Part shown: piece after piece, positions 1 to 35,764 of the stretch
How the letters are laid out: the number at the start of each line of letters is the position of its first letter
Position numbering within the stretch: position 1 is the first letter of the stretch
IMG/VR virus record: IMGVR_UViG_3300044730_001661
Coordinates: 3,997-67,996 of that record
Strand: one strand, 5' to 3'
Length of the DNA: 64,000 bases
Origin: a virus
Translations under genes and position numbers: made by a program
Notes under the pieces: generated by a model
The model's database searches: none
What the model was told of the DNA's origin: nothing
The model's input: only the letters and a program-made list of their open reading frames with translations

Positions 1-222
1 AAGACCACCCGCGTCGAACTCAACGATGCCGAACTGAACATCATTCAGTCCGCACTCTTCGATGGCTTGGTTCGTCTGATGCAGGATTCCAAGTCGTTCG
101 ACATAACGAATCCCGATGATGACGATTTCCTGATGGAGAGCAAGATGGAGGCGCACACCATCAAGGTTCTTCAGGATAAGTTGAAGTTTGCCCTGAAGCA
201 GATCGAACTTGACGGGGCTTGA
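1..222 (+). CDS. Hypothetical early protein, 5' end outside window
   Basis: Frame 1 is open from base 1 (KTTRVELNDAELNIIQSALF...) to TGA at 220-222, with GC3-rich codons like its neighbours. Confidence 0.75.
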   Translation, partial: KTTRVELNDAELNIIQSALFDGLVRLMQDSKSFDITNPDDDDFLMESKMEAHTIKVLQDKLKFALKQIELDGA

Positions 223-326
223 CAGCCCTTTGATGATATGTTACAATTGCCCCGGTGAAATAATTTATTTAAAGTTCTCACCGCTAGGCATTTGACATAC
301 GGCGACCCTCGTAGTATCATTCGGGC
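219..326 (+). promoter_or_regulatory. Tandem sigma70-type early promoters separated by an AT-rich UP-like tract
   Basis: TTGACA-17-TACAAT (219-247), then AATAATTTATTTAAAGTTCT, then TTGACA-17-TATCAT 6 nt before ATG 327. Near-duplicate at 854-962. Confidence 0.85.
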
Positions 327-476
327 ATGTACAGCACCGTCTACCGCCCCGCCCGTTTCGTCCACGAAGCCCTTCGCGGAGGGATCCGCCTCCGTCCCAA
401 GACTTGGGGCAAGAAGTCCCGCGACCCCCGCGCCGCCCGCCGCGCCGCGAAGCGTGACCTGATCCGTGGCACTTGA
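327..476 (+). CDS. Small basic protein (49 aa), leaderless
   Basis: MYSTVYRPARFVHEALRGGIRLRPKTWGKKSRDPRAARRAAKRDLIRGT*. ATG is 6 nt after the -10 box. Below the ORF-track cutoff. Confidence 0.75.
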   Translation: MYSTVYRPARFVHEALRGGIRLRPKTWGKKSRDPRAARRAAKRDLIRGT

Positions 477-1875: not shown

Positions 1876-1979
1876 GACTACTATCAGCGTCCCCTCGGGG
1901 ACGCTGATTAATTTTGTTGGACAGGAAGTAATTTAAGGACTTTATTTTAATCAATTTGCATAGCAAATTGATAGTAGTC
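1876..1979. repeat. Symmetric hairpin element, copy 1
   Basis: GACTACTATCA + palindrome ATCAGCGTCCCC-TC-GGGGACGCTGAT; core TGGACAGG; palindrome ATCAATTTGC-ATA-GCAAATTGAT + AGTAGTC. Confidence 0.9.
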
Positions 1980-5120: not shown

Positions 5121-5213
5121 GACTACTATCAGCCAGCTCTAGAGCTGGCTGATTAAATTGGTGGACAGGATTCAAAGGAATTATAATTTCTTTCAGAAAT
5201 ATTGATAGTAGTC
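5121..5213. repeat. Symmetric hairpin element, copy 2
   Basis: GACTACTATCAGCCAGCTCTAGAGCTGGCTGAT (perfect palindrome); TGGACAGG; AGGAATTATAATTTCT-TTC-AGAAATATTGATAGTAGTC. Confidence 0.9.
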
Positions 5214-5344
5214 CAGAGAGCCACCTGGAGCCACTTGACATAACCTGCGCAGCATGTTACAATGGTCTCGGTATAAAAAATTTATTTACAAAACTTTCTG
5301 TGCGGGTGCTTGACATACAGAAGATTCGGTGGTAAGATTGGGGT

Positions 5345-6703
5345 ATGAGCAGCATCGACATTCGCAAGCGTAACTTCCTCAACGCCCTGTACATCCTGTA
5401 CGGCAACCCCACCTCCATCGGTGAGGCAACCTACACCCGTGAGCAGTGCATTGCCGCAATCGCGCAATCCTACGCTCTCGGAGGGCAGACCTACAGCGTC
5501 CTCCCGGCTTGGCTGACGCAGGACAAGAGCCGCCGCGTTGAGCGCGGCAAGTACAGCATTCCGGAGATGGTCGTGTTGGTTGACGCCATCATCGAAGAAA
5601 ACTCTGATGAAAACTCCACCGTGGAGTTGACAGTCCCCGAAACTTGTGATACCATGAGCAACATGAACAGCAACACTTTCAACCTCGTCGCCCCGTCCTC
5701 CGATGTTTCGCTCGTCCCCGTCAAGAACGACACTTTCGTTCCGTGGGGTCACCACGATGACATCAGCACCATCCTCAAGTCCAAGCAGTTCGCCCCCGTC
5801 TACATCACGGGCATGAGCGGCAACGGCAAGACCACGATGGTGGAGCAGATTTGCGCCGCCTCCGGTCGTGAGTGCATCCGCGTCAACATCACCGCCGAAA
5901 CGGACGAGGACGATCTCATCGGCGGCTTCCGGCTCATCAACGGCGAGACGAAGTTCGTGTTCGGCGGGGTCGTTCAGGCTATGCAGCGGGGTGCGATCCT
6001 GCTGCTTGACGAGATCGACCTCGGGACGGAGCGCATGATGTGCCTTCAGCCCGTCCTTGAGGGCAAGGGCATCTACATCAAGAAGATCGGGATGTTCGTC
6101 AAGCCCGTGCAGGGGTTCAATGTGGTCGCCACCGCGAACACGAAGGGCAAGGGCGAGTCTGACCGCTTTGTCGGGACGCGCTGCATGAACGAGGCTTTCC
6201 TTGACCGCTTCTCGTACTGGTTTGAGCAGGACTACGCGGACAAGACCATCGAAGCGCGCATCATCATCCGCAAGATGAAGGCGTACGGCAAGGAGGACAA
6301 GGAGTTCGCGCAGTACCTCGTCAAGTGGGCGGAAACGATCCGCCTCGGCTTCAAGGAGGGCGGCTTGGACGATATCATCACGACCCGCCGCTTGGAGGAG
6401 GTGTGCAAGGCGTTCGCCATCTTTAGCGACAAGCAGAAGGCGATCAAGTTGACGCTGACCCGGTTCGACCCGGCTACGCAGGAGGCGTTCTACAACCTCT
6501 ACACGAAGATCGACCCGACCATGCTCCCGACCCCGGAGGGCATGAAGGAGGAGAAGCCCTCCTCGCCGGGTTCCTGCTCGACCTCCGATGCTGACGAGAT
6601 CAAGAAGGCGGTCGATGCCGCCATTGCCAAGATGTTCCCGACCTCCACGGTCGTTGATCCCAACCTCACCAACCCCGGCACGGACTACGCCGTGACCGCC
6701 TAA
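5345..6703 (+). CDS. MoxR/CobS-like AAA+ ATPase with N-terminal accessory domain
   Basis: Walker A GMSGNGKT, Walker B LLLDEID, ATANTKG sensor, NEAFLDRF, ITTRRL; typical of the CobS-like ATPases of T4-like phages. Leaderless start. Confidence 0.92.
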   Translation: MSSIDIRKRNFLNALYILYGNPTSIGEATYTREQCIAAIAQSYALGGQTYSVLPAWLTQDKSRRVERGKYSIPEMVVLVDAIIEENSDENSTVELTVPETCDTMSNMNSNTFNLVAPSSDVSLVPVKNDTFVPWGHHDDISTILKSKQFAPVYITGMSGNGKTTMVEQICAASGRECIRVNITAETDEDDLIGGFRLINGETKFVFGGVVQAMQRGAILLLDEIDLGTERMMCLQPVLEGKGIYIKKIGMFVKPVQGFNVVATANTKGKGESDRFVGTRCMNEAFLDRFSYWFEQDYADKTIEARIIIRKMKAYGKEDKEFAQYLVKWAETIRLGFKEGGLDDIITTRRLEEVCKAFAIFSDKQKAIKLTLTRFDPATQEAFYNLYTKIDPTMLPTPEGMKEEKPSSPGSCSTSDADEIKKAVDAAIAKMFPTSTVVDPNLTNPGTDYAVTA

Positions 6704-6727
6704 CCAAGAAAGAGAAAGAAAAAGAAA

Positions 6728-6949
6728 ATGCCATACCTCAACAAGCGCAATCGTTTCGTCACCACCGCCAAGCACTACGCGGAAGTTCACAATCGCCCCA
6801 TCGACTGCTTCACGAAGGCAGACCTCCTCGCCATTGCGAAGTCGATCAACATGAAGGGGATTCCGACTTGGGTGCTGAAGGAACACCGCAGCGCGGTGAG
6901 CAAGGGAGTCTACGATCTCACCTCGCTCATCAACGCGGTTCCCGTCTGA
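6728..6949 (+). CDS. Small protein resembling the ATPase N-terminal domain
   Basis: Shares (F/Y)T(K/R)..., PxW(L/V), Vx(K/R)GxY motifs with residues 1-80 of the AAA protein. Confidence 0.8.
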   Translation: MPYLNKRNRFVTTAKHYAEVHNRPIDCFTKADLLAIAKSINMKGIPTWVLKEHRSAVSKGVYDLTSLINAVPV

Positions 6950-7001
6950 CGGATGCTGTTCATGCCCCTCCCCCCGAATGGGGGGAGGGGCGATAGCGTG
7001 G

Positions 7002-7107
7002 AACTACTATCAAATTCTTCCAGCTTCGCTGGAAGAATTTTTATTGGACGGTATTTAGATTCCTGCAAGGAATTATAATTTTCTGAAAGAAAATATTGAT
7101 AGTAGTT
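7002..7107. repeat. Symmetric hairpin element, copy 3
   Basis: AACTACTATCAAATTCTTCCAGC-TTC-GCTGGAAGAATTT; TGGACGGT; AGGAATTATAATTTTCT-GAA-AGAAAATATTGATAGTAGTT, with a compensatory A/T pair at the termini. Confidence 0.9.
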
Positions 7108-7218
7108 ATCGGACCCACCGATTTATTAAATTTCCCCGGAATTAAATTCTGCGATTATTTGTGCCTCCATGCGGACGAGGTACTTGACATACAGACGGGG
7201 GTGGGTTACAATACGCGC

Positions 7219-9366
7219 ATGAACAAGTCTCTCTCCATCTTTGCCCGCGCCCTCGCCACCGAGAACATCTCCTTTGCTTTCAGCAAGGAGGCGGAAACCG
7301 CATCGTTCGATGTGAAGAACCGCCACCTCGTCCTCCCGGTGTGGGATGTGTCCGAAACCGTGCAGACCATGCTCGTGGCGCACGAGATCAGCCATGCCCT
7401 GTGGACTCCCTACGAGCGCAGCGAGGCTCTGCTCAACGCTGCGGAGAAGGACGGCTACGACCGTACCCTGCTTCAGCGGATCGCCAATGTCGTGGAGGAT
7501 GTTCGCATTGAGAAGTTGATGAAGGCGAAGTACCCCGGTACGCGCCGCGACTTCTTCTTGGGCTACAAGGAGATCTACGAGATCGACCTCTTTGGCTTCA
7601 AGGGCAAGGACTTCAGCGACTCCAACACCATCACCCGCCTGAACCTCCATTGCAAGTGGGGCGTTCCCGGCTTCCTCACCATCGACCTCTCCAACGAGGA
7701 GCAGGGGTTTGTTGCCGACATTGACGCGGCGCAGACCATTGAGGATGTGTACGAGGTCGCCAAGCGCATCTACGATGACAAGGGCATGGACAAGACCCGC
7801 GAGAAGTTTGAGCAGGGCGGTGAGGATCAGCAGCAGGGCAGCAGCAAGACCGACAAGACCGACAAGGCGGACAAGATCGTGGAGGGCAACACGGACTCCA
7901 TCGGCAGGAAGAGCGGAGAAGATTATAACTTTCCTACGGTCGTGATCTCCCCGCTCAAGGACTACCACCGCTGCATCATCAGCAGCGAGATGATCCGCGA
8001 TAGCCTCAAGAACGCGAACACGGGCTACGACAATCCGCTCCCCGCCTACCGCGAGTTCGTCCGCGAGTCCGATGCGTTCGTGCGCCAGTTGGTCGCCCAG
8101 TTCGACCGCCGCAAGGCTGCGGACGAGATCCGCCGGGAGCGTCCGAAGCAGACGGGGATGCTGAACCTTGACCGCCTCCACCAGTACCGCACCCATGACG
8201 ATATCTTCATCAGCAAGATCGTCAAGCAGGACGGCAAGAGCCACGGCATCGTGTTCATGCTTGACTTCAGCGGGTCGATGCAGAGCAACATCCGCGACTG
8301 CTACCTTCAGATCCTCCAGTTGGTGTGGTTCTGCGAGAAGGCGAAGATCCCGTTTGAGGTGTTCGCGTTCACCGACCTCCATGTTCGCGCCCTGATCCCG
8401 ACCTTTGATGCGGACGAGAAGGCGTACTACCGTAACCCGGCGAACATGAACACGCAGTTCAAGCACCCGCTCATGCCGATCCCGGCGCAGGACAAGCCCA
8501 ATCAGATGAACTACGGGCAGGTTGGACTCATGCAGATCGCCTCCTCGCAGGACAGCGCGGAGAAGCGCGAGGAGATCCTTGCCTACCTGTACGGGGCTAT
8601 GGTTGCCGGGACGCACTCTCGCGGCGGTGACTACCTGAACATGAGCGGAACCCCGACCGTGGAAGCCGTTGCGGTGTGCAGCCAGTTCATGCAGGAGTGG
8701 GTCAAGGACAACAACATTCAGATCCCGACCCTCATGGTCGTGACGGACGGCTCCCCCAACGGCATCTGCATGAGGGATTCCAACTCCGACATTCTCTACT
8801 ACGGCTTGGGCAAGCAGGGTTCGCTCACGGTCGTGAACGAGATCATGGGTACGACCCACCAGTTGGACATTGCCGATATGCAGCACCTTGACTTGGGGAA
8901 CGCGATCCTCTACCCGATGTTGGACGCGCTCCGCACCAACCTCAACGCCCGTATCGTTGGGATGTATGTGGGCGGTCAGAGCCTCCATGAGAACGCCTTT
9001 GTGCAGTTCTGCATGGGAGCGCAGGAGCGCATGGCGTACTGGAATCAGCCGTGGAATCAGCGCAAGGATGTGAAGGAGACTCCCCGGTTCAAGGCGGCGA
9101 AGGAAACCTACAACGAGGGCGCGATCATCGTCCACCCCGATACCTTCCCCGGCTACGATGCCTACTTCCTCCTCAAGACCCCGAAGATCGTGAAGGACGA
9201 GGAGGCGTTCAAGGAGGGCAACTTCACGAAGGTCAAGAACGCCTTTATCAAGACGATGGCGAAGCGCGGAGGCTCCCGCGTGTTCCTCACCCGGTATGTG
9301 GATATCGTGGCGGGTCAGCCCCTCAACAAGAAGGGGGACGCCATCTACAACCACCCCGTGTTCTGA
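7219..9366 (+). CDS. CobT-like protein: HExxH metallopeptidase-like domain plus vWA domain (AAA+ partner)
   Basis: AHEISHAL...NVVEDVRIE; MIDAS motif LDFSGSM, GTPT, VTDG. Likely start ATG 7219, 6 nt after TACAAT. Confidence 0.9.
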   Translation: MNKSLSIFARALATENISFAFSKEAETASFDVKNRHLVLPVWDVSETVQTMLVAHEISHALWTPYERSEALLNAAEKDGYDRTLLQRIANVVEDVRIEKLMKAKYPGTRRDFFLGYKEIYEIDLFGFKGKDFSDSNTITRLNLHCKWGVPGFLTIDLSNEEQGFVADIDAAQTIEDVYEVAKRIYDDKGMDKTREKFEQGGEDQQQGSSKTDKTDKADKIVEGNTDSIGRKSGEDYNFPTVVISPLKDYHRCIISSEMIRDSLKNANTGYDNPLPAYREFVRESDAFVRQLVAQFDRRKAADEIRRERPKQTGMLNLDRLHQYRTHDDIFISKIVKQDGKSHGIVFMLDFSGSMQSNIRDCYLQILQLVWFCEKAKIPFEVFAFTDLHVRALIPTFDADEKAYYRNPANMNTQFKHPLMPIPAQDKPNQMNYGQVGLMQIASSQDSAEKREEILAYLYGAMVAGTHSRGGDYLNMSGTPTVEAVAVCSQFMQEWVKDNNIQIPTLMVVTDGSPNGICMRDSNSDILYYGLGKQGSLTVVNEIMGTTHQLDIADMQHLDLGNAILYPMLDALRTNLNARIVGMYVGGQSLHENAFVQFCMGAQERMAYWNQPWNQRKDVKETPRFKAAKETYNEGAIIVHPDTFPGYDAYFLLKTPKIVKDEEAFKEGNFTKVKNAFIKTMAKRGGSRVFLTRYVDIVAGQPLNKKGDAIYNHPVF

Positions 9367-9436
9367 CGGAGAGGGAAGGGAACCCCCCAGGACTGGAAGG
9401 AGAGAGCCAGTCCTGGGGGGCCTCGGGGGAGCTGCG

Positions 9437-9528
9437 GACTACTATCAAATTTCCTTAAAGGAAATTTGATTTTTTACATGGACGGGGCGCAGGAATTATA
9501 ATTTCTTTCAGAAATATTGATAGTAGTC
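9437..9528. repeat. Symmetric hairpin element, copy 4
   Basis: GACTACTATCAAATTTCCTT-A-AAGGAAATTTGAT; TGGACGGG; AGGAATTATAATTTCTTTCAGAAATATTGATAGTAGTC. Confidence 0.9.
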
Positions 9529-9529
9529 C

Positions 9530-10415
9530 CATACCTGGAAGGGGAGACCAGCACGCCAGACTCCTGGTTACCTGCGTGCTCGAGCACCGGCTGGACGGGA
9601 TCTAGCCAAATAATAAATTATTTTAATTATCGGGCACTTGACATAGCGTGCCGTCCCATGGTATAATTGCTCTTGGTGCCCTAATTTAATTTGCTTAACT
9701 CAGGTACGTCCACTGAGGTTATGGGACTTGTGGGTACCTACTTGACAACCCCCATATCTGGTGTATAGTTACCAGACTGTTCATGCGACCGATAACCTCC
9801 CAGTCCCTTGTGACCGATAATCATACCGGCGGGGCTGGGAGTTATCGGGCGTTCACCGTTACCGGACTCGACGGGTCTACGGTTATCGGGCTCAACAAAG
9901 TTTCAAATAATTTTGAAATTTTTATCGGACGGTCTCAGAGTCCGGGAACTACTATCCAGACTACTATCAGGGTCCGATAAGGACCCGTTACAAGCTGGCC
10001 CTGGACGGGATACAAAAATTTTAAGGATCTTATGGGACCCTGGACGGGATATAGAATGCCTGGACAGGATGTAGCTCCATTGTCATAGGACTGTCACATT
10101 TAATAATAATATTGTCATCGATTGGACGGGATAGAGCTCTCCTGGACGGTACCTGCAGGTGGCATTGTCAGTAGGCTCTCAAATATTATCAAAATTTTAT
10201 AAAATTTGTCTTTGTATAGTCGTTGTAGAATCGATTATACGGCGTTTTGTCGTTTAAGAGGCCTCGGGAGGCACTTTAAGGCTTCGGAGGGCTCTGAGGG
10301 GCCTTCTAGGGCTCTTAAAGAGGGTTTAAGAGAGGGGTACTAACTCAATCTTTCTCAAAAATTCTTATAAATTTCTTACCCACCCCACACTCTTTCATAC
10401 CCCCCTTTACCCCAC
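9530..10415. other. Non-coding control region with iterated motifs (candidate origin, terminus or DNA-entry signal)
   Basis: No credible ORF. TGGACRG x6, CCGATAA/TTATCGG x7, ACTACTATC x2, AT-rich palindromes; composition changes across it. Confidence 0.6.
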
Positions 10416-10417
10416 CC

Positions 10418-10822
10418 TTATTCCTCGTCCTCTACTGGCTTTATATTCTCCATATCAGCCTGATCTATGACATACGCTGGTATGGTTTTCTTCTTTTCTA
10501 TTGAATGTGCCTTCTTGATTCTATTCAATCCGTCTGTAATGGAAATAGTCCCGTCCTCTTGTCTTACGCCCAGTACGGGTACGCTGGTATCTGCCTTTTC
10601 CATTCTTGCCTTGTGTTCTTTGTTGTCCATGTCATATTGCTTTTCCCACCATTCTAGTGCGTCGGTATCTTCTATGGGCAAATCTTTTATTAATTTTGTA
10701 TTCTTCTTGGCGTATTCGTAGATGTCCTTGACTCGGTACTTCTTTCCAGTCTCATCGTTTTGGGCGAGTTGCTCGTCCCAATTTTCTACTGCCTCTCTCA
10801 AAAATTCTTTAAATTTCTTCAT
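10418..10822 (-). CDS. ParB/Srx-like domain protein with MKKFKEFLRE N-terminus
   Basis: ADTSVPVLG...ITDGLNRIKKA matches the ParB-like DGxHR core; N-terminus resembles the T4 capsid-targeting sequence. Confidence 0.75.
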   Translation of the reverse strand: MKKFKEFLREAVENWDEQLAQNDETGKKYRVKDIYEYAKKNTKLIKDLPIEDTDALEWWEKQYDMDNKEHKARMEKADTSVPVLGVRQEDGTISITDGLNRIKKAHSIEKKKTIPAYVIDQADMENIKPVEDEE

Positions 10823-11310
10823 ATTGTTATGTCGTTAAGGCTGTCGATCATTCTGAACTTGGGATTCTTGCGGGCCCTTGCACGGATCATGTTGCCTGCT
10901 CTGTCATTTATATGATCTGCATGGGCTTTGATGATATCCCTGAGTTCGTCTGGATCGGTGTTTTTAAATTTGGGTGAACGCCCAACCTTGTTGGTAACTC
11001 TGTAGAGAACATCGAAGAGTGTCGGTTTCTCGTAATCACCCTTCAGGTCAGCGTGCATTGCTTCAAAGTGTTTAGGATCTTCTCCCGTGATGGTGTCGAT
11101 GTGCTTTCCCAATTCTTCTTGATACATTCTCGATTCCGGAGAATCTTCTACGTCTATGTTCGGAAGTTCTGATTTAATAAAACTTAAAAATTGTCCCATT
11201 GGGTGTCTGCGGTGATCCTGCTTCGGTTCCCCTGTCTGGGTAACGATGTTTTTGGGTGTTGCGAGGACGATGTCATTTTCCTCGCTCAGGAATTGAAGAA
11301 AGCTTTTCAT
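10819..11310 (-). CDS. Putative internal head protein (163 aa)
   Basis: MKSFLQFLSEE N-terminus; TAAATA late promoter 5 nt upstream. Confidence 0.8.
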   Translation of the reverse strand: MKSFLQFLSEENDIVLATPKNIVTQTGEPKQDHRRHPMGQFLSFIKSELPNIDVEDSPESRMYQEELGKHIDTITGEDPKHFEAMHADLKGDYEKPTLFDVLYRVTNKVGRSPKFKNTDPDELRDIIKAHADHINDRAGNMIRARARKNPKFRMIDSLNDITI

Positions 11311-11357
11311 GTATGTATTTAGGTTGACTTGGGCTCTTTTGATGGTATGATGTGTGC

Positions 11358-11717
11358 ATGGAAACCAGAGACGTTCGTCGGCTCAAGGCAGAGATCCGTT
11401 ACTTGCGGAACTGCCTGATGGAAGCGTACAACGCGATCCCGACCCTTCCCTGCAATTCGCAGGACTCTTGGAAAGTGGTCAGCCCGATCATGCGAGCCAT
11501 CCGGGAATATCACACATCTTACGATGTCGAGTTCATTCAGTCCACGGTGAATGAAAAGCGCAAAGCCGTATCCGCCCATCTTACCCGCCCGATTACCGCG
11601 TCGGAGTTGGGAGGTACTGATGTTCCTCCTGTCGTTCAGGAGCCGGAACTCACCGTCAAGATAGACTCGTCCTTTATTCCCAAGAATGTTGCGTTGGCGA
11701 AGTCTTTTGGGTTTTGA
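11358..11717 (+). CDS. Hypothetical protein, leaderless
   Basis: TTGACT-16-TATGAT-6nt-ATG; METRDVRRLK... Confidence 0.8.
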   Translation: METRDVRRLKAEIRYLRNCLMEAYNAIPTLPCNSQDSWKVVSPIMRAIREYHTSYDVEFIQSTVNEKRKAVSAHLTRPITASELGGTDVPPVVQEPELTVKIDSSFIPKNVALAKSFGF

Positions 11718-11753
11718 CCTTGACCTGTCCTGACTCGGAGATATACTAGAACT

Positions 11754-12017
11754 ATGGCTACCAAGACCAAGAAAGAAACCAAGTACCACTACTTCTTTAA
11801 TTACGACCGGGGAAACTATTTTCAGATTTCCCGTGGGCTGGAAAAGCGTTACAGCCGCTATTTTTGCGGAAGGGGAATTGGAGTTAGTGGGTTCCACATT
11901 CACTTCTACTGCACTCCAAAGGAGTATAAGCGCATTGTGGCTTGCGCTCGTCGTCGCTACGGCAAGATCAAGAGTGTCACTCGTTATACCGAAGAAGCCT
12001 TTTACGGAGATGACTGA
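11754..12017 (+). CDS. Basic hypothetical protein (87 aa), leaderless
   Basis: TTGACC...TATACT-6nt-ATG. Confidence 0.8.
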   Translation: MATKTKKETKYHYFFNYDRGNYFQISRGLEKRYSRYFCGRGIGVSGFHIHFYCTPKEYKRIVACARRRYGKIKSVTRYTEEAFYGDD

Positions 12018-12207: not shown

Positions 12208-12584
12208 TGCCCGACTACGAACCCCTAGACTATCGCCTACGCTGCCATAGCAAGCGCACCGATCTTCCCCCTGATGTTCTGCGGGATATCTGTGAGGCGT
12301 ATGAGTATATGGAACTTCTTCGTGATGAATTGACCGAGCGCATTCATATGTGTGATATGCGTTCTGAAAAGATTCTCGAACTTACTGCCGAGCGCGACGA
12401 GGCAAGACTAGAAGTGTGCGAATGGGTTGAGATGGATGGAGCGACGACTGCCAAGGAAGAGGCCGAGTTGCGTGGATGGGACTGCTTCAAGAACGCACCA
12501 GTCGTCAAGACGCTGAACGGCGTAGTTGTTTCCAAAGGCAAGGCACTACCACCAAAGTTTGAACTCGGAGAAGATGACAAATGA
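12207..12584 (+). CDS. Hypothetical phage protein (ERDEAR...RGWDCFK motif)
   Basis: Overlapping start/stop, operon-like packing. Confidence 0.75.
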   Translation: MPDYEPLDYRLRCHSKRTDLPPDVLRDICEAYEYMELLRDELTERIHMCDMRSEKILELTAERDEARLEVCEWVEMDGATTAKEEAELRGWDCFKNAPVVKTLNGVVVSKGKALPPKFELGEDDK

Positions 12585-12844
12585 ACAGAGAACGCTACAT
12601 CGAACTCAACACCACGGGACAGGATCTCACCCCCGAAGAGTGGGATCAGGGTTGGCATTGGTGTGTTGAATGGGATGGCTTGCTTGTAGGCCCGAACACC
12701 GAAGAGGCTCTTGTCTGCTCTTGCAACCATCCTGTCATCGAAGCATGGAAGCAGTCCGATGCTGGCAAGAAGTTGCAAGAGGAACTTGATAAGCGGTCTG
12801 AGGAAATTACTGAAAAAAACTTTTTTATGGGTGAAATGGACTAA
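12581..12844 (+). CDS. Hypothetical protein (87 aa)
   Basis: ATGA overlap; GWHWCxEWDGLLV motif. Confidence 0.75.
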   Translation: MNRERYIELNTTGQDLTPEEWDQGWHWCVEWDGLLVGPNTEEALVCSCNHPVIEAWKQSDAGKKLQEELDKRSEEITEKNFFMGEMD

Positions 12845-13296
12845 TGGGATACTCAGTTTCAACAATCTACGATATTGGACAGAAGTTTTCTTCGTCCATC
12901 GACCAGGGCTCCATGTACATGGAGGTGTCGTACACCAACCCATTGAAGTTTGATCCTACGCTGACGATCATGGAGCCTCGCTCCGAAGCAATCGTGGAGC
13001 CTACAGTGTCGAACTATGCTGCAGCCACTCGCCCGTTCTTCATGGGTTCGTTTGATGGCTTTTGGATTCACAAGGTCTTCAACGACGGCAACCTTGTGAT
13101 GACCGTGCAGACCGTCGATCAGGATATGTTCATCCCCGTGCAGCATGACCGCGTTGAGAGCGTGTCGATGGGCTACATGGAGAGCATTCCCTATGACGGT
13201 CCCGTGCGTCCTCCTGTGCCTGCTCCGGGCGTTGGAGCCATGCTTGGACTGGCTGCTCTGTTTGCGGTTGGACGGAAGCGGATAAATAGAAAGTGA
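12844..13296 (+). CDS. Protein with PEP-CTERM-like (VPAPG) sorting tail
   Basis: C-terminus VPAPG-VGAMLGLAALFAVG-RKRINRK: motif, transmembrane helix, basic cluster. Confidence 0.8.
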   Translation: MGYSVSTIYDIGQKFSSSIDQGSMYMEVSYTNPLKFDPTLTIMEPRSEAIVEPTVSNYAAATRPFFMGSFDGFWIHKVFNDGNLVMTVQTVDQDMFIPVQHDRVESVSMGYMESIPYDGPVRPPVPAPGVGAMLGLAALFAVGRKRINRK

Positions 13297-13421
13297 ATCA
13301 GCAAGGCATTCCATACATCATTCCTCTGTGGGCATTCATAGGTATTGTCTGTGCTCCTGCGCTTGGACTGTTTGTAGCAGAGGTTTTGATATGGTTTCGC
13401 AAACATAAAAATAAATATTGA
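13293..13421 (+). CDS. Small membrane protein (42 aa)
   Basis: GTGA overlap; hydrophobic IIPLWAFIGIVCAPALGLFVAEVLIWF then a basic tail. Confidence 0.5.
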   Translation: MNQQGIPYIIPLWAFIGIVCAPALGLFVAEVLIWFRKHKNKY

Positions 13422-13423
13422 TA

Positions 13424-13497
13424 CGGGCATTAACTCAGCTTGGTAGAGTGCTTGCTTTGGGAGCAAGATGCCGTTGGTTCAAATCCAGCATGCCCGA
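13424..13497 (+). tRNA. tRNA-Pro(TGG)
   Basis: CGGGCAT/ATGCCCG; CTTGC-TTTGGGA-GCAAG; GGTTCAAATCC. Confidence 0.95.
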
Positions 13498-13535
13498 TTA
13501 CTTGACTTTACACTTATAAAGGTCATAATAGACTT

Positions 13536-13700
13536 ATGAAAACTCTAATTAACAAACTCACTATTCCCGCTATCATTCTTCTTGCCATCAATTTGATTGG
13601 CCTTGTATTTCACAAGAACTATGAAGGTGCTATGATGGGAAGCATTGTCGGCGTACTCTGTGCGTTCCTTGCAACAGAGATCCGCGCAAAGTTTGACTGA
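13536..13700 (+). CDS. Small two-TM protein (54 aa), leaderless
   Basis: TTGACT...CATAAT-6nt-ATG; two hydrophobic segments. Confidence 0.65.
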   Translation: MKTLINKLTIPAIILLAINLIGLVFHKNYEGAMMGSIVGVLCAFLATEIRAKFD

Positions 13701-13705
13701 CTTTA

Positions 13706-13779
13706 GGCCCCATAGATTAAATGGCTAAATCGTCTCCCTTTCAAGGAGAAGAGTCCGAGTTCGATCCTCGGTGGGGTCA
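13706..13779 (+). tRNA. tRNA-Glu(TTC)
   Basis: GGCCCCA/TGGGGTC; TCTCC-CTTTCAA-GGAGA; GTTCGATC. Confidence 0.93.
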
Positions 13780-13793
13780 TTGAGCATATTACC

Positions 13794-14048
13794 ATGAGCG
13801 ATATTGAAACAAAAATAAGAGAACTTTCAAACAAGTGGAAGAGTGCCCACATGGAAGCTTCCGCAATCTGCCGAGATGCTGCAGAGGAACTTCGTGTGCT
13901 TCGCCTTCAACTTCAGGCTGCAAATCGTGAGTTGGAGCTCTATCGTCATATGGATCGTCCACATTATTATCCAAATATTCCTGAGAAGGAGTATAGAGTT
14001 ACTTGCTCTACCAACATTCTCGGATGGGGAAAAGGAAAAGACGAATGA
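13794..14048 (+). CDS. Hypothetical protein (84 aa)
   Basis: Co-oriented ORF overlapping the next start. Confidence 0.7.
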   Translation: MSDIETKIRELSNKWKSAHMEASAICRDAAEELRVLRLQLQAANRELELYRHMDRPHYYPNIPEKEYRVTCSTNILGWGKGKDE

Positions 14049-14491
14049 ACCCTTTTGTTGAAAATCATCCCGATCAGATCGACAAGTTGATCCAGGATTA
14101 TCCTGTTGTCTTTCGACACATGGACACCACTACGGTTTCCAGCCTTCCTGCTGGCTGGTACACGATCATGGACAAACTCTGCTCCGATCTCACTCCGCTT
14201 CTTGAGGAAGCCCTGCAAGAGAATCCCGAGACTCCTGAAGAGCCTCTGTTCAGCATACTGCAGATCAAGGAGAAGTTCGGTGGTCTTCGTTTTTATTATA
14301 CGATGAACACAAAGAACGATGATCTCTACAGAAAAGTTCAGTCAATGGTTGACAATGCAGAGGATGCTTCCTACGAAACTTGTCAGATCACGGGAAAGCC
14401 AGGTGTCCTGTGCAAGAGTGGTAGTTGGTACATGACTCTATGCGAAGAGTCCAGAATCTCCATGGGTTACAAGATCATCGGCAATGGATAA
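14045..14491 (+). CDS. Conserved phage hypothetical protein (QIKEKFGGLRFY family)
   Basis: GWY...QIKEKFGGLRFY...TCQITGKPG...W..TLC motif set. Confidence 0.8.
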   Translation: MNPFVENHPDQIDKLIQDYPVVFRHMDTTTVSSLPAGWYTIMDKLCSDLTPLLEEALQENPETPEEPLFSILQIKEKFGGLRFYYTMNTKNDDLYRKVQSMVDNAEDASYETCQITGKPGVLCKSGSWYMTLCEESRISMGYKIIGNG

Positions 14492-15038
14492 TAGAAACCT
14501 AATCGATCACTACAAGTATTGGACCGACGATGCAATTCGTGCAGATTTGGATGTACGCCGTTTTAATTATTCAGTTGTTTGTTGCAATATTGGCAATGAT
14601 TTTAATATTGCAACCGTCATTCGAAATGCTAATGCGTTTCTTGCGCAGGAGGTGGTAATCTATGGTAATAAGAAGTATGATCGAAGGGGCACGGTGGGTA
14701 CTCACCATTATAGCAATTTTCGTCATGTCAGGAGCATTGATTCTCTTGGAGACTATCTGCGGGAGCGACGAGAGCAGCATAGAGGACAGATTCGACTATT
14801 GGGAATAGACAATATTCCCGAGGCAAAGGATGTCAATGCCTTTGACTTTGATCCAAATGTCCATTATGTAATGATCTTCGGGCAGGAGCAGATTGGCGTT
14901 CCTACGGACGTGCTAAGTATGTGTGATGACGTTCTCTACATTCCCCAGTACGGGTCCGTGAGAAGCATCAATGTCGGTTGCGCAAGTTCAATCATAATGA
15001 ACAATTACTGCGCCAAAATTCACTCCTCGGTGGTGTAA
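14484..15038 (+). CDS. SpoU/TrmH-family (SPOUT) RNA 2'-O-methyltransferase
   Basis: NIATVIRNANAF, IFGQEQIGV, YIPQYGSVRSINVGCAS correspond to SPOUT motifs 1-3. Confidence 0.9.
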   Translation: MDNRNLIDHYKYWTDDAIRADLDVRRFNYSVVCCNIGNDFNIATVIRNANAFLAQEVVIYGNKKYDRRGTVGTHHYSNFRHVRSIDSLGDYLRERREQHRGQIRLLGIDNIPEAKDVNAFDFDPNVHYVMIFGQEQIGVPTDVLSMCDDVLYIPQYGSVRSINVGCASSIIMNNYCAKIHSSVV

Positions 15039-15096: not shown

Positions 15097-15207
15097 ATGG
15101 TTACTAAGATACTCATCTGGACCGCAATCGGTTCAGTAATAATGACAGGATTTGGAATAATTTTATACGGAATCTTTTGTATGATCCGTGACTCGCAAAG
15201 GAACTAA
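15097..15207 (+). CDS. Small membrane protein (36 aa)
   Basis: MVTKILIWTAIGSVIMTGFGIILYGIFCMIRDSQRN*; ATG 2 nt after tRNA-Gln. Confidence 0.5.
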   Translation: MVTKILIWTAIGSVIMTGFGIILYGIFCMIRDSQRN

Positions 15208-15208
15208 A

Positions 15209-15466
15209 ATGAAGCCTATTGGTAAATGGATTGTTGCATCGTCTTTGATCGGTGGTGAAAAGAAGACCTCTGCCGGTATCATCTTTCAGGAGAAGTCCAA
15301 GAGCAAGATCATCCCTGCAAAGGTGATTGCTGTTGGAAACAAACTCACCGAAGATATCAAAGTCGGTGACGTTATCTGGTGGGATGTCAGTAAATTAAAA
15401 GATGGCTTCCGAGGAAACCATCTAGTCCACCAAGACTGGGTTGAGTTGGTAGAGCGAGAGGCTTAA
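15209..15466 (+). CDS. groES: GroES/gp31-like co-chaperonin
   Basis: MKPIGKWI...EKKTSAGII...AKVIAVG...IKVGDVI is the Cpn10 signature. Confidence 0.88.
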   Translation: MKPIGKWIVASSLIGGEKKTSAGIIFQEKSKSKIIPAKVIAVGNKLTEDIKVGDVIWWDVSKLKDGFRGNHLVHQDWVELVEREA

Positions 15467-16251: not shown

Positions 16252-19200
16252 TTATAAATTTGGAAGATAATGGTTGTAAGTTGGGTATGTGCCAAACGTA
16301 TACGATCCAACATTCTTCAATTGATTCAAAATCTCACTATAGTTTGCTGGCTTAATGGAATCAAAAGTTATTCCGTTTGCATAGCGGTCAGTAGGATAAC
16401 ATGGTCCCCAGAAAGGATCGAATACGAAACCATCACGGTCCAAACTTCTTTGAGACAACAGATCTATGGTTCCATCTAAACGAATACCGTAGGCCAAATC
16501 TCCTACGCTTCTGATCCAAGCAAACGGATTATCCAAAATATTATCATCGGCAACAGCAAGCACGGGAATGTTGCTACCAGCTAAAGTGTATCCCGTATTT
16601 GCAGAACCACCACTCAAGACTGGATAATTTCCTGCAGTATCTCCATAAGCAAATACTTTAACAATTACGTCATTTGTGATGTAATTTGTTTCTTTCACCA
16701 TCCACGGTGGTGGGTCCGATGCAGTGCTTCCAAAATAATCAAAATAAGAAAATCCAAATAAAGAGTCGGGTGCAGTTCCATCCAATGGGATTTCATATAC
16801 AGAAAGATATTCTCCATTGACTTTAGGAGGATTACCCCAACCTCCAGAAGTATTTGACATAGATGCTCTAGTATTAAGCCACATTGTGGACTCGTCATAA
16901 GTTTCTAAAGTAGGAGTTGGAATAACTAAACCTGGTGAAAGCGGATTGGGTCCATTTCCTATTTTCCATCTTGAACCACCCGGAGATGCTGGTGCATAAG
17001 CAAAATTAAATATTGGTGAGAATCCATATCTAGAATAATCAAAAGAAGCTGTACCAAGAGTAAAATCACCTTTCATGGTAACTCTACCATGATCCAATAT
17101 TTCTTGAGCGTAATTTGGATTGGTTGTAATATCAAAAATACATGGAACATATACATCATTACCCGCAAACGGAGTCCACGTTCCATTATTACTCAATATT
17201 CCAACCAATCCAGGTCCTCGTGCAGACTCATTATTTGCCAATCCACTACAAAAACGCTGTAGACTTACACATCTCGGGGGAACATAAACCAATTGCTGTG
17301 TATTATTAACTTCCAAAACAACTCCATAAATCATATCATAAAGTTGTTGGTCAAAATTAGAATTTTCTGGATAAGACCAAGTTTGTGAACCAGAATTATA
17401 AGTTGCTGTATAATGTTGTACCCTGCTCAGCAATCTTCTAACATATGGGTTTGAAGTAGCAACATCTTGGAATTTTACTACTTCACACATTTGAGTAGGA
17501 TGTGGAAAAGACGAACGTGAAGGAATATAACCTGTATAAGTTGGGTTGATGCAAGTTGCAACACCCCCACTGATATATCCACCCCAAACGGAGGTCACGG
17601 GGAAACGGACACCATCAATTTTTGGAATAAAGTTTAGAACATAAGCAATCTCCTTGCATGTTCCATTTATTATACTTCCAGTTACAGTACTTCCGCTCCA
17701 AGCATAATATTGCTTAAATTCATCTGGTCTAGCTCCAGGAGGGGGTCCTAAAGGTGGTGTTTCTAGGGTTCCAAATTCAGATGCTCTTCCAGATTCTGGA
17801 TCTTGTGGGTCCACAAATTTATTTTTTTTCTGGTTATATGAATTATAATAGTTGTTAGATCCAGTATTACCAGCTACACTTGTTATTTCGACTCCGTAAA
17901 GGCGACCAGATTTATGAAGGCACCACACATAAATCAAACTACCGAGTAGACCACCGGATACGGTTACTGATACAAAGTCCCTATTTTCTATAGTAACAGG
18001 ATTGTTTTCGTCATCTGTTAAAAACCCATTCGCAATCCAGTCTTCATCAAAATATGTCAAATACTCCCATGCAGCTGAAGTGCTTGCTATTCCCTGTGGA
18101 GTAGTATCGCTATTATACAATATTCTCACAGTTCCATTTTCATCTAACATTGCCAAACATTGATCTGTTGATAGATCAACTGATACCAGATTAATTTCAC
18201 CCGTAGCACCAACATCATCGACGCCATCCATATCCAGATCGTTGCCATATAAACCGGCAACCGGTGCAATTTTTCCTCCATTTGTGAGTACTACTGAATG
18301 GTAGTGACCTGCTCCTAAACGATATGGTGTCTGGTTAACGCCAGTGTATACAGTAGATGGAACCGTTGCCTGATTTGTAGTAACACCATCAAAGTTTGTA
18401 TTCGCTCCCCACGCTACGATAAAATTACCAGCATCATATCCTGTTGGTCCGACCGCCGCTAAAGCATGGGCAGCACCCGCAGCAATATCCACAATTCTGC
18501 CTTGTATTTCGGATGGGACCTCTACTACAGTTCCACCCACTATACTGAGAACACTATTTTCGCCAGTAAATCCCCAAGCATATAGAGTATTATTGATATC
18601 TAAAGCCATTGCAAAATAATCACCGGCTGCAATTTTTTTAATATCTGCAGAGAAAGATGGTCCAGTTAATCCAGACGGTACATCGTATATACCAATATAA
18701 GCAGGAAGATCTCCTGGATCTTTTGCTCCTCCCCAAATAAATATACGTCCAGAATCATTTAAAGCCATGGAATAATATTGACGAGCATCTATCTGTACTA
18801 TATTTCCAAGCCCAGTCATTCCACTCGGGACAGTGCACTGTCCAAAATCATTGCTTCCCCAGCAAATTACATCATTGGTATCTGTTAACACGACGGCGTG
18901 CTTCCAACCTGCGGCAACCTGTGTCACAACCTTGGATGAAAGAGATGGAGGTACGTTTTCTACTACACCCGAAGAACCTGGAGATCTACCCCATACGGAA
19001 ATTTGACCATTTTCTTTGGCTGCAATTGCCCAATCCGACCCAGCGTCTCCACCCATCGCTATATCAATAAAACCGGTACCGGATGGGAGATCGTCACGAA
19101 CTTTTCCAAATAGGTCAAATCCAGTAAATCCTAAAGATCCGTCTATTTTTATTACAAGAGTATTTTTGACGTTAGGGGCAACTTCTTTCAGTTCTCCAAA

Positions 19201-30543: not shown

Positions 30544-31146
30544 TTATTTAGGCTCTGGAGATTCCTTATAAATTTCAAGCGGATTGTAAAGTTTGATGTT
30601 TTTGCAGCTTTTTACTTTTCCGCTGGCTAGTTTTTTAATACAGCCGTAATCTATGTTATTTGCTTCTGCAAACTGTTTTAAATTAGTGACTGTAAATACT
30701 TGCCCGCTTAATTTATCTTGGAAGATGGCCGATTTTAAGATTTTAATTTTTTGTGGTTTTGGTTCTTCAATTTTCTCTCTGGAACCAGTTCTTTCCTGAA
30801 CAGCCCTTACTTCTACCGCAGTCCATCCCTTGTAGGTCTTTCTTTTTCCATTCAAGAGTTCACAAATTTTTACTGGAGTGAGACCGTGCTTCTTTCCGAA
30901 TTCAGTAAGATTCTCAAAGAATATTTTTTCTCCAGTATCAACTCGCTTGAGCCAGTTTCCATTTTGTTCTTTTACTGGGTTAGTCCATACCCAGTTTTTG
31001 TTTTCATAGGTAAAGAAACCACCATGCTGATTGATGAAATTTTGACGGTTTTTGGCAGCTTTTGAATTGTCATTCATGGCAACCCATAATTTTGAATTTC
31101 TTCGGTTTACATCCTGCCAAGGAGTATTTACGTTATGAAATTCCAT
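30544..31146 (-). CDS. Protein with two NUMOD1-like DNA-binding repeats
   Basis: ENLTEFGKKHGL..ICELLNGKRKTYKGW and TNLKQFAEANNI..IKKLASGKVKSCK. Confidence 0.65.
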   Translation of the reverse strand: MEFHNVNTPWQDVNRRNSKLWVAMNDNSKAAKNRQNFINQHGGFFTYENKNWVWTNPVKEQNGNWLKRVDTGEKIFFENLTEFGKKHGLTPVKICELLNGKRKTYKGWTAVEVRAVQERTGSREKIEEPKPQKIKILKSAIFQDKLSGQVFTVTNLKQFAEANNIDYGCIKKLASGKVKSCKNIKLYNPLEIYKESPEPK

Positions 31147-35724: not shown

Positions 35725-35764
35725 GGCTGTAAAATATTTAGATTTTCATAAATACTTAAAAGGT

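Follow-up and report, generated by a model that had tools for sequence, protein, structure and literature searches.

At the end of the GC-rich early-gene island of an uncultured lake-water T4-like phage lies a control region of about 1 kb, here called the hub, and the question that it raises is what role so dense a set of short repeats plays at that place. An earlier note on this DNA had read the region as one motif-dense, non-coding array, a candidate origin, terminus or entry-stop signal. The window analysed here is the whole stretch of 64,000 nucleotides that contains it. The phage has a T4-type DNA polymerase, and its early island, in which small genes under host-type promoters fill about 13.5 kb, terminates at the hub and holds 32 consensus promoter-like sites, every one of them rightward. 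The change of composition and gene orientation described earlier is present at the hub, where GC drops from 0.53-0.60 to 0.43-0.49 and genes turn from the plus to the minus strand. The hub is a composite end-piece of this island, tripartite (9638-9980, 10002-10157 and 10076-10426) rather than a single non-coding array, and it probably serves as a transcription-boundary or replication-origin-like site.

Anatomy of the hub and its relatives

The features of the hub and of the DNA immediately upstream are as follows.

9383-9420, plus strand: GC-rich hairpin past the stop of a VWA/CobT-like gene; arms 9383-9396 and 9407-9420, loop GGAAGGAGAGAGCC kept in relatives
9436-9529, plus strand: fourth copy of the dispersed hairpin element; ACTACTATCA, hairpin and T-run, TGGACGG, TTTACA-18-TATAAT, hairpin, TGATAGTAGT
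9592-9606, plus strand: outlying iteron copy TGGACGGGATCTAGC, within a lineage-specific insert
9638-9667, plus strand: promoter-like site P1, TTGACA-18-TATAAT, 12/12 consensus
9742-9769, plus strand: promoter-like site P2, TTGACA-16-TATAGT, 11/12 consensus
9783-9980, plus strand: remnant small membrane-protein ORF, 65 codons from ATG 9783, helix shortened by a 30-column gap
9789-9848, plus strand: mRNA hairpin beginning 3 nt past the ATG; arms 9789-9806 and 9832-9848, base CCGATAAC / GTTATCGG
9901-9918, no strand: AT palindrome TTTCAAATAATTTTGAAA; relatives retain a palindrome with altered arms
9917-10024, plus strand: out-of-frame C-terminal ORF remnant NYYPDYYQG...LDGIQKF*, holding the ACTACTATC half-sites at 9948 and 9960 and a GGGTCC/GGACCC hairpin
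10002-10157, plus strand: array of iterons, YGGACRGGATNNARA five times in the same orientation, from 10002, 10041, 10061, 10123 and 10143
10076-10250, no strand: AT-rich tract carrying four TGTCA copies and the palindrome 10192-10207, its left end within the iteron array
10250-10337, plus strand: G-tract array, period about 11 bp
10338-10426, plus strand: G-free C-rich block of 89 nt, abutting the stop codon of the convergent gene 10418-10822 (minus strand)

An identical module order after the VWA gene was found in seven viral-contig relatives and also in additional loci from metagenomes (41 loci, 35 unique cores). The relatives were fetched through a conserved 21-nt word, and because of this retrieval and of common ancestry the counts given below are not independent of one another. 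None of the 18 pattern matches from a related-locus search with the VWA protein was confirmed, and by megablast and blastn the region had no nucleotide match among 50,697 phage records. When viral contigs were scanned with AATATTGATAGTAGT and CCTGGACRGGATRTAG, each matching contig had a single match, which was taken as chance, although L127 proved to be a true relative. Four sequencing runs were also compared, all of them as contigs, so that starts, ends and termini are unreadable; X15 and X18 are probably DNA. The sole certain RNA run, X19, has contigs over 6215-9413 and 12332-14592 and no depth in bins 9676-12013, a hole that proves nothing about expression.

The motif coordinates and spacings of the earlier note proved exact throughout. 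TGGACRG lies on the plus strand at 9592, 10002, 10041, 10061, 10123 and 10143, the last five spaced by 39, 20, 62 and 20 bp; TTATCGG/CCGATAA lies at 9627, 9789, 9814, 9842, 9883, 9922 and 9974, and also at 7106; the ACTACTATC half-sites stand at 9948 and 9960, and TGTCA at 10081, 10092, 10113 and 10166. The AT-rich palindromes were likewise recovered, at 9901-9918 and 10192-10207, and a close variant of the first, TTTCAAATAAATTTGAAA, is found at base 40 of the record. The proposed check of motif enrichment was carried out with a divided outcome. Neither 7-mer is enriched window-wide, TGGACRG occurring 18 times where 12.3 +/- 3.9 are expected (as many in 9 of 100 shuffles) and TTATCGG 12 times where 6.9 +/- 2.8 are expected (as many in 7 of 100 shuffles), but their local clustering is far beyond chance, with six TGGACRG within 558 bp (Poisson P about 2e-9) and seven TTATCGG within 354 bp (P about 2e-14). 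Clustering, not window-wide frequency, is thus the exceptional property of the 7-mers. Four TGTCA copies fall within 90 bp (P about 3e-6, or about 2e-3 once position-corrected), and ACTACTATC has 10 matches in the window against 0.33 expected, a count reached by none of 100 shuffles.

A decayed small gene and a conserved iteron array

The left part of the hub, 9638-9980, is by its predicted features the last transcription unit of the early island, a tandem promoter module with a small membrane-protein gene that has decayed in this genome. P1 and its leader can be aligned with the 'Pa + leader' modules found at four other places in the early island, and at the place of P2 a site of the form TTGACN-15..19-TAnnnT is present in 40 of the 41 related loci. 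The two sigma70 promoters described earlier as orphans are thus both in place but form the island's standard tandem promoter module, and the one at 9742, once counted as part of the array, belongs to the small gene. Its product, in relatives, has 74-127 codons and one transmembrane helix. An open frame with an MRPIT..GGYR motif, the helix and a KVS..EN tail is found in 34 of 35 unique relatives, and these features define an unnamed family of 93 clusters. The window copy departs from them; its frame is broken, with 65 codons, a shortened helix and the tail in a different frame. That the region has no credible gene is accordingly true of the window genome and not of its relatives, where the small ORF from the ATG at 9783 is conserved.

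This gene also accounts for several of the apparent binding motifs. The CCGATAA/TTATCGG copies, previously assigned to an iteron-like binding array, are V-I-G codons and the stem of the hairpin at 9789-9848, a 16-bp, covarying structure that is the sole conserved RNA fold found in the hub. ACTACTATC encodes YYQG or YYPG in relatives, and the iterons can be translated as GRD, GQD and LDGI. A general lesson of the locus is that some apparent binding motifs are codons and an mRNA hairpin.

The iterons themselves are of another kind. They occur in all three frames, both within and past the ORF, they stand entirely outside it in the L227/L247 subgroup, and they are retained in the window despite the broken ORF, all of which identifies them as a nucleic-acid signal and not a peptide repeat. 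All 30 unique relatives examined have the array, with 4-8 copies each, and the proposed conservation check found it kept in relatives whose VWA protein is only 55-58% identical. The iteron-like array of the earlier note is real, and YGGACRGGATNNARA is a word of about 15 nt that also marks the dispersed hairpin elements. In these elements the word has a terminator-like hairpin on one side and a -10-like TATAAT on the other and overlaps the -35 region of TTTACA-18-TATAAT, and its distance to the TATAAT differs from element to element (8, 10 and 19 nt). Positions 9491-9529 of the fourth element are an exact 39-nt repeat of 5176-5214. Around the outlying iteron copy, a run contig of a relative omits 9448-9751.

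GGACRGGAT was counted in five records of 82-137 kb, and the share of copies within the hub was 5/5 in G002, 3/3 in G006, 4/5 in G007, 5/7 in G003 and 5/13 in G001, whose remaining eight copies are all inside the early island or next to it; with the reversed pattern as a control, a record had 0-1 match. In every one of the five records searched the word thus has one cluster only, and for this reason the earlier term 'master site' is a fair description. Orientation is uniform, at 13 forward and none reverse in G001 and 5/5 co-oriented in both G002 and G007, and the dispersed copies all lie on the transcribed strand, which is also compatible with an RNA-level or transcription-coupled role. Spacing is irregular. 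Among 153 successive spacings, 29 measure 19-21 bp and 23 measure 11-13 bp, and the full span runs from 11 to more than 100 bp. In the matrix of the relatives' copies the word contains GGA, often as CAGGAU, and the iteron stretch folds with a z of +0.98, 164 of 200 shuffles folding as well.

The AT-rich tract and the strand switch

To the right of the array, the AT-rich tract is only moderately AT-rich. Its GC is 0.37 overall and 0.31 at 10160-10250 (0.24-0.40 in 20 relatives), in a surrounding genome of about 0.40; the 80-nt segment at 10177 ties the lowest GC of the first 16 kb, a value that is not extreme. In relatives the A/T and G tracts are helically phased. The best period of the A/T tracts is 10-10.5 bp in 20 of 21 relatives, matched by at most 5 of 300 shuffles in 19 of the 21, and that of the G tracts is 10-11 bp in 20 of 21. 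Phasing is weak in the window, where the AT part was matched by 88 and the G part by 19 of 1000 shuffles. In relatives the tract ends in a TTGCTTGAC...TATAGG box that the window has lost. Sigma-70 and T4 MotA-box spacings were tried by eye on this box as a promoter and none fits; at none of the standard spacings does the box have a -10 that ends in T.

The G-rich to C-rich switch pointed out earlier is real, with G 35 and C 16 at 10245-10340, then C 39 and G 3 at 10341-10440. Of 29 relatives, only 13 have G-quadruplex motifs on the plus strand, against 24 on the minus strand. The 89-nt G-free run from 10338 is the longest of the window (the runner-up has 50 nt), and a G-free C-rich block of this kind occurs only once in the window and only once in the 137-kb relative. 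Identity over the block is 68% when the window is compared with relatives and 73% when relatives are compared with one another, and the block is kept whatever gene comes next; in 16 of 18 relatives the next ORF on its right is a minus-strand one. It is at 10076-10426 that the rightward early transcription meets the leftward transcription. Being 89 nt without G, C-rich, without a consensus fold and set between convergent genes, the block shows rut-like features and is a candidate Rho-dependent terminator. RNAalifold found no consensus structure on either strand of the hub's right half, and Rfam gave no gathering-score match in the hub, only chance-level miRNA matches at E up to 5 across 9300-10600. 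The unremarkable folding of the iteron stretch, the missing RNAalifold consensus and the 10-11-bp tract phasing together suggest that the array and the right half act at the DNA level and not as folded RNA.

An origin-like reading, its rivals and known systems

A review of T4 gives three descriptions of its origins: at oriE, direct repeats called 'iterons' are clustered and an early promoter is required, oriF and oriG pair a promoter with an A+T-rich unwinding element that forms an R-loop, and active origins lie at switches of transcribed strand and base composition (PMC3016281). By analogy, all three descriptions apply at the hub. Our tentative preference is to read it as an origin-like nucleoprotein site comparable to T4 oriE, equipped with a Rho-type two-way stop. 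The iterons, on bent DNA, would be the binding sites of an early phage protein; transcripts from P1 and P2 would run into the AT-rich tract and the G-rich non-template tract; an RNA-DNA hybrid left there would prime leading-strand synthesis; and the C-rich, G-poor RNA made in either direction, that of the leftward transcript being C-rich because the plus strand of the G-tract array is G-rich, would load Rho and halt both converging transcripts. The origin analogy drawn earlier thus holds for anatomy (early promoter, iterons, AT-rich phased tract, strand and composition switch) but not for skew or for a binder. Cumulative GC skew, computed as had been proposed, has no global extremum at the hub in the 64-kb window or in the 137-kb relative. 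A Pfam scan of 42 window ORFs found no ParB-like, Rep or other DNA-binding domain, and so no initiator or regulator, and the adjacent ParB-like product of the earlier note found no support in it. The iteron-type anatomy of at least three co-oriented direct repeats at one site is present (five copies here, 4-8 in 30 of 30 relatives), and an initiator that would bind them was not found by Pfam among the 42 ORFs. Against an origin, P2 lies some 400 nt upstream of the AT-rich tract (its -10 ends at 9769, the tract is at 10160-10250) and not adjacent to it; the arrangement of oriF and oriG, in which the unwinding element follows the promoter within about 100 bp, is not seen at the hub. The iteron spacings that gather at 19-21 and 11-13 bp count in favour of an origin, while their wide overall span, unlike the even spacing of the T4 oriE repeats or plasmid iterons, counts against it, as do the moderate AT content of the tract, the weak phasing in the window and the lost box.

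A reading without any replication role is almost as probable, and likewise tentative. Here the hub would be a transcription boundary or switch, with the iterons as operators for a phage or host regulator of early transcription, a single site in every dispersed terminator/promoter element and their high-affinity cluster on bent DNA closing the island and the G/C-rich end serving only as a two-way insulator. The place of the word over the -35 of the hairpin elements, the 32 rightward sites of the island that the hub closes, the convergence in 16 of 18 relatives, the phased A/T tracts upstream of a conserved TTGAC-containing box and the uniqueness of the G-free block all agree with it. It is weakened by the want of a regulator among the 42 ORFs, by the box having no -10 with a final T at standard spacing, by the inconstant distance from word to TATAAT and by the number of sites, 5-8 clustered copies with no obvious downstream target being unusual for an operator. 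An RNA-level element appears improbable. In that case P1 and P2 would give a short mRNA whose 3' part, with its 5-8 copies of the word, titrates an RNA-binding protein as a CsrB-like decoy, or is cut or bound by a factor that acts also on the single copies in early polycistronic RNAs. The placement of all true copies on the transcribed strand, their variable spacing, the GGA within the word and the two consensus promoters upstream of the array speak for it, but the array folds no better than shuffles, so that the GGA motifs are not in stable hairpin loops, CsrA was found in none of five phage records (all fragments; the host is not identified), Rfam has nothing beyond chance in 9300-10600, and the adjoining A/T and G tracts are phased at 10-11 bp, which is a feature of duplex DNA.

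The two remaining readings are much less probable still. A site at a physical DNA end, whether a T5-like injection stop or a packaging (pac) or terminus site, is very doubtful. The early island, which ends at the hub, makes up about 8% of a genome estimated at 180 kb (from 137,341 bp at 76% completeness), a layout that we take to be similar to that of T5 first-step transfer, and for 14 of 33 metagenome contigs the first base falls 18-266 nt upstream of the core. These breaks, however, coincide with the exact repeat shared by 5176-5214 and 9491-9529; contigs of the DNA run X2 start at 5185 and 9500, inside the two repeat copies, and one ends at 9415, yet another covers 9500-10694 unbroken and with no change at all. 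The island of G001 lies well inside its 137-kb contig (at 81-93.5 kb, 81 kb and 43 kb from the contig ends), and IMG/VR lists no end repeats for these records. The polymerase is of T4 type, and T4 DNA is described in the same review as circularly permuted, without fixed ends (PMC3016281). The T5 injection-stop analogy offered earlier is not supported, the island being internal and the DNA contig unbroken, and such a stop is unlikely. Nor is it at all probable that the hub is only a decaying gene, its motif density being the leftover of the small ORF and debris of repeated elements. The TTATCGG and ACTACTATC copies do read as codons or hairpin stem, the iterons can be read as peptide, and the ORF is broken in the window, but in many relatives the iterons and the entire right half lie past the ORF and are nevertheless conserved, the C-rich block included, and the word clusters at a single locus per record.

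The origin-like and the boundary functions may also be one. The co-oriented 15-nt word would then be a phage-wide code, present as single copies in the hairpin elements of every early operon and as a once-per-genome master array on phased, bent DNA that couples early shut-off to the start of replication, the array overlapping a decayable small gene and being sealed by back-to-back Rho-loading tracts. We offer this as a conjecture that is improbable as a whole. To our knowledge, and from a limited literature search, a module that joins an origin to a transcription boundary in this way is not on record for T4-type phages.

Among known systems, the decoy RNAs of the CsrB/RsmZ type carry many GGA-containing repeats per transcript, as the hub does, but the hub repeats are not in stable hairpin loops, and neither CsrA (0 of 5 phage records) nor an Rfam match was found. 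The T5 injection-stop region is repeat-dense non-coding DNA that ends a block of host-promoter-driven first genes, and so is the hub, which differs in having no evidence of a fixed genome end, the island being internal in a 137-kb contig. The rut sites of Rho-dependent terminators are C-rich, G-poor and unstructured in their RNA, over some 70-80 nt or more at the end of a transcription unit. The hub resembles them in its 89-nt G-free, C-rich rightward RNA, in a leftward RNA with C 35 against G 16, in the lack of a conserved fold and in its place at the end of converging units; unlike them it has two putative rut-like tracts back to back, a 10-11-nt periodicity and high conservation. Co-oriented repeats adjoining an AT-rich tract recall the iteron origins of plasmids and lambdoid phages (R6K gamma), and lambda ori lies inside gene O, to which the partial overlap of the hub repeats with a coding frame is comparable. 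Unlike those origins, the hub has no recognisable initiator gene, the overlapped ORF encodes a small membrane protein, and the spacing is not fixed.

The T4 origins are compared in the same way. With oriF and oriG the hub shares a promoter and a downstream AT-rich tract, and its G-rich non-template tract would favour an RNA-DNA hybrid; those origins, however, take up about 100 bp and are MotA-dependent, whereas the hub promoter stands some 400 nt from the AT tract. A MotA search of five fragmentary phage records, run without a positive control, found none. The likeness to oriE (repEA/repEB) lies in a T4-type phage with a short direct-repeat cluster beside a small early ORF, a host-type early promoter and a switch of strand and composition (PMC3016281). 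The T4 repeats are 12 nt long and evenly spaced, in contrast to the irregularly spaced hub word of about 15 nt, and what the iterons of oriE do in T4 itself is, according to the review, unresolved (PMC3016281). For the large clade of uncultured freshwater T4-type phages without known origins or early-to-middle control sites, the hub provides a conserved, sharply bounded candidate of 400 bp with a defined 15-nt word. We know of no replication origins or early-to-middle control sites in their cyanophage relatives either. The hub is also an example of how a cis-acting array can overlap a coding frame and outlast it.

The hub and the GC-rich early island

The hub (window about 9530-10426) was described in the earlier note as one non-coding motif array. 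The observation is real and conserved, although a decayed gene makes up part of the hub: the array and the asymmetric right end stand, while the left third is what is left of a coding frame. The motif coordinates that had been listed are all correct. The motifs are not enriched window-wide (TGGACRG, 18 observed vs 12.3 expected; TTATCGG, 12 vs 6.9), but their clustering in the hub is extreme, with Poisson P of ~2e-9 and ~2e-14, respectively. ACTACTATC occurs 10 times in the window against 0.33 expected, and eight of these copies serve as outer arms in four dispersed hairpin elements. Judged from sequence, the array together with its phased, G/C-asymmetric end is a genuine cis-element, clustered at one locus per record, and its function is a matter of candidates.

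Related loci were fetched first with a conserved hub word of 28 nt and then with one of 21 nt, which gave 6 viral and 33 metagenome loci; the total set holds 41 loci with 35 unique cores and, being picked through the hub word and sharing ancestry, yields counts that are not independent events. Four of five large related records encode a homologue (55-58% identity) of the VWA/CobT-like protein (756 aa) whose gene lies upstream of the hub. The same module order follows the gene in each of the four; the conservation in relatives proposed as a check is borne out.

The window spans bases 3997-67996 of a 67,996-bp virus record. That record is 39% complete (CheckV), and its IMG/VR relatives reach 137 kb and 76%. 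Its family-B DNA polymerase is T4-type, with 43% identity to Synechococcus myovirus polymerases, and it also encodes a DnaB-like helicase, primase, UvsX-like recombinase, ribonucleotide reductase and tail fibres. Those DNA runs in which the stretch occurs come from lake-water metagenomes. An island with GC of 0.53-0.60, vs ~0.40 elsewhere, takes up the window's left 9.4 kb and the preceding 4 kb (3996 bases). It carries 32 promoter-like sites (TTGACW-N16-18-TAnnnT), all on the + strand; 17 have, 6 nt past the -10 box, an ATG that begins an ORF of 30 codons or more, and those genes are therefore leaderless. Two genes of the island have a GC3 of 0.85-0.87, vs 0.25-0.58 for seven genes outside. 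Together with phage tRNAs that all read A- or U-ending codons (below), this suggests that early genes follow host codon usage, with later genes relying on phage tRNAs. G001, the 137-kb relative, has this island at 81-93.5 kb, inside the contig, with the hub at its right edge; the composition jump is thus conserved, not the product of a chimeric assembly.

Features of the window
219-330, 854-966, 2006-2117, 5235-5348, 9638-9780: tandem promoter modules (Pa and leader, then Pb); three more lie before the window
1877-1978, 5122-5212, 7003-7106, 9438-9527: the four dispersed hairpin elements, ~90-100 nt each
5345-6703: MoxR/CbbQ-type AAA_5 ATPase
7096-9366: VWA/CobT-like "peptidase"
14484-15038: SpoU-type methylase
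15188-15466: Cpn10/GroES-like protein
16252-20424: RCC1-repeat protein, 1390 aa
23634-24033: permuted (two-piece) tmRNA gene (ARAGORN; Rfam RF04321, 67 bits)
30544-31146 and 35723-36250: two HNH endonuclease ORFs

In the tandem modules, the leader of Pa (TGCCTCGGTGGAATAATTTATTTAAAG) is non-coding and conserved; Pb lies ~73 nt further on and has a leaderless ATG. Each hairpin element has outer arms ACTACTATCA...TGATAGTAGT and contains a terminator-like hairpin, a single copy of the iteron word, a -10-like TATAAT and another hairpin; a three-way junction could form in its RNA. At the island's left edge in G001 (80900-81350, locus L264) there is likewise ~450 bp of non-coding DNA, with three GGGGACCCAT-like repeats, one iteron copy and divergent promoter-like sites. 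Base 40 of the window's own record carries TTTCAAATAAATTTGAAA, a close variant of the hub palindrome.

The AAA_5 ATPase and VWA/CobT-like genes are paired as in cyanomyoviruses (phrog_249, phrog_459), and both lie under contigs of metatranscriptome run X19. The VWA/CobT-like gene probably starts within 7184-7221, at a leaderless ATG 6 nt past the promoter-like site of 7184-7212, and not at the ORF-finder TTG at 7096. The tmRNA gene adjoins tRNA-Gly and tRNA-Tyr, and all ten phage tRNAs read A- or U-ending codons. The permuted tmRNA, given the taxonomic range of that form, the cyanophage-like DNA polymerase and VWA matches and the lake-water source hint at a high-GC picocyanobacterial or alphaproteobacterial host.

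A decayed gene, an iteron array and phased DNA

In the left third, promoter-like site P1 (9638-9667, + strand) and its leader align with the window's four other Pa and leader modules. P2 (9742-9769, + strand) takes the second-promoter position of this usual island layout, where 40 of the 41 loci have a promoter-like site. From ATG 9783 the frame runs uninterrupted for 74 codons or more in 34 of 35 unique sequences; per 75 codons, there are 3.5 and 4.1 stops in the two remaining frames. Its product is part of a family of 93 unnamed protein clusters in which no Pfam domain was found, with MRPIT.Q, GGYR, one hydrophobic helix (VIGAxLIxLxVIGLAGAMVI) and a polar tail (KVSKISENI.GRD..GQ..YYxG.LG..R). 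TTATCGG, previously taken for a binding array, instead supplies V-I-G codons of the helix and the 3' arm of an mRNA hairpin.

This 16-bp hairpin begins 3 nt past ATG 9783. Its pairing holds in 98.4% of cells (0/500 shuffles reach this), against 36-59% with slid partners, and compensatory changes occur in four pairs and 13 cells (0/500 shuffles). G:U pairs are tolerated on the + strand only (consensus energy -24.8 vs -11.1 on the - strand), and 9776-9930 of the window folds with z = -4.2. The window's own ORF is broken: 30 alignment columns are missing from the helix, a stop follows after 65 codons, and the YYQG...LDGIQ tail can be read in a different frame only (9917-10024). An error in this one assembly is an unlikely cause of the break, since a DNA-run contig from a different sample is identical over 9500-10694. 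A contig of run X18 joins 9447 to 9752; some relatives therefore lack the 304-nt stretch carrying P1 and an outlying iteron. Records G002, G003 and G005 also have a shorter form.

The iteron word of the middle third (10002-10157), YGGACRGGATNNARA, was derived from all GGACRG sites (183 sites in 30 unique hubs, 4-8 copies per hub). The ORF tail reads across the first copies. Iterons occur in all three frames, inside and past the ORF, and wholly outside it in the subgroup of loci L227 and L247, which marks them as a nucleic-acid signal. Across five records of 82-137 kb, the copies of GGACRGGAT gather at the hub and are scarce elsewhere, with 0-1 copies of a reversed control word per record; G001 has eight further copies in or beside its early island. 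In the window, the extended word is confined to the hub and the hairpin elements, with one weaker copy in each of the latter. Copies at 3207, 3219, 12876, 13269 and 36736 are without the extension and look like chance. Successive spacings are most often 19-21 bp (29 of 153 cases), 11-13 bp (23) or 15 bp (14), the remainder being irregular. Folded as RNA, 9985-10175 is no more stable than its shuffles (z +0.98).

In the right third, relatives have A/T tracts phased at 10-10.5 bp, the best period in 20 of 21, and at most 5 of 300 shuffles match this in 19 of the 21. They are followed in relatives by a nearly invariant TTGCTTGAC...TATAGG box, G tracts (period 10-11 bp, 20/21) and a C-rich block. 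Of these features, the window retains the composition and the C-block (68% identity to relatives); the box is lost and the phasing weaker (88 and 19 of 1000 shuffles); TRF reports short arrays of 10-12 bp periods. RNAalifold found no consensus RNA structure in this third on either strand. An 89-nt G-free run, the longest in the window, is also the sole 70-nt C-rich, G-poor stretch in the 64 kb, and is likewise unique in the 137-kb relative. Rightward RNA is therefore C-rich and G-free over 10338-10426, and leftward RNA is C-rich (35 C, 16 G) over 10340-10245. Given what is established about rut sites, the simplest reading would be a back-to-back Rho-type stop at 10245-10426. Right of the block, the nearest ORF of 70 codons or more runs on the minus strand in 16 of 18 relatives; which gene it is differs between them.

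Candidate functions of the hub

By analogy, the hub may be an origin-like site of the T4 oriE kind, sealed by the two-way Rho-type stop; this reading is ranked first and is held tentatively. Against it, cumulative GC skew, suggested earlier as a check, has no extremum at the hub in the window or in G001, and no initiator protein was found among 42 window ORFs scanned against Pfam. The iteron spacing is irregular, P2 lies ~400 nt from the AT tract, and that tract is only moderately AT-rich (GC 0.31). A somewhat more doubtful alternative is a regulator-binding boundary, which would account for the word standing singly next to the promoter-like sites of the hairpin elements. That the array acts as an RNA-level decoy is improbable, even though a decoy would explain the strict co-orientation of the word with transcription.

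An injection-stop, pac or terminus site is very improbable, and the T5-like analogy drawn in the earlier note is weakened accordingly. The island is contig-internal in G001, and the polymerase is T4-type, T4 DNA being circularly permuted according to a T4 review (PMC3016281). Contig breaks upstream of the hub fall at an exact 39-nt repeat (5176-5214 = 9491-9529): contigs of DNA run X2 start at 5185 and 9500, inside the repeat copies, and one ends at 9415. Of the related metagenome contigs, 14 of 33 start 18-266 nt upstream of the hub core, an assembly effect mistakable for a genome end. X19, the one certain RNA run, is contig-free over the hub, a gap that carries no weight on expression.

The origin-like reading owes its rank to the ingredients of T4 origins together with the helical phasing, which points to a DNA-level nucleoprotein structure. 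In the same review (PMC3016281), oriE has a cluster of direct-repeat iterons and is early-promoter-dependent, oriF and oriG combine a promoter with an A+T-rich unwinding element where the transcript makes a persistent R-loop, and all three sit where transcribed strand and nucleotide bias switch. Each ingredient named there has a candidate counterpart in the hub, which adds the phasing, and its architecture is classed as a variant of known origin and boundary architectures.
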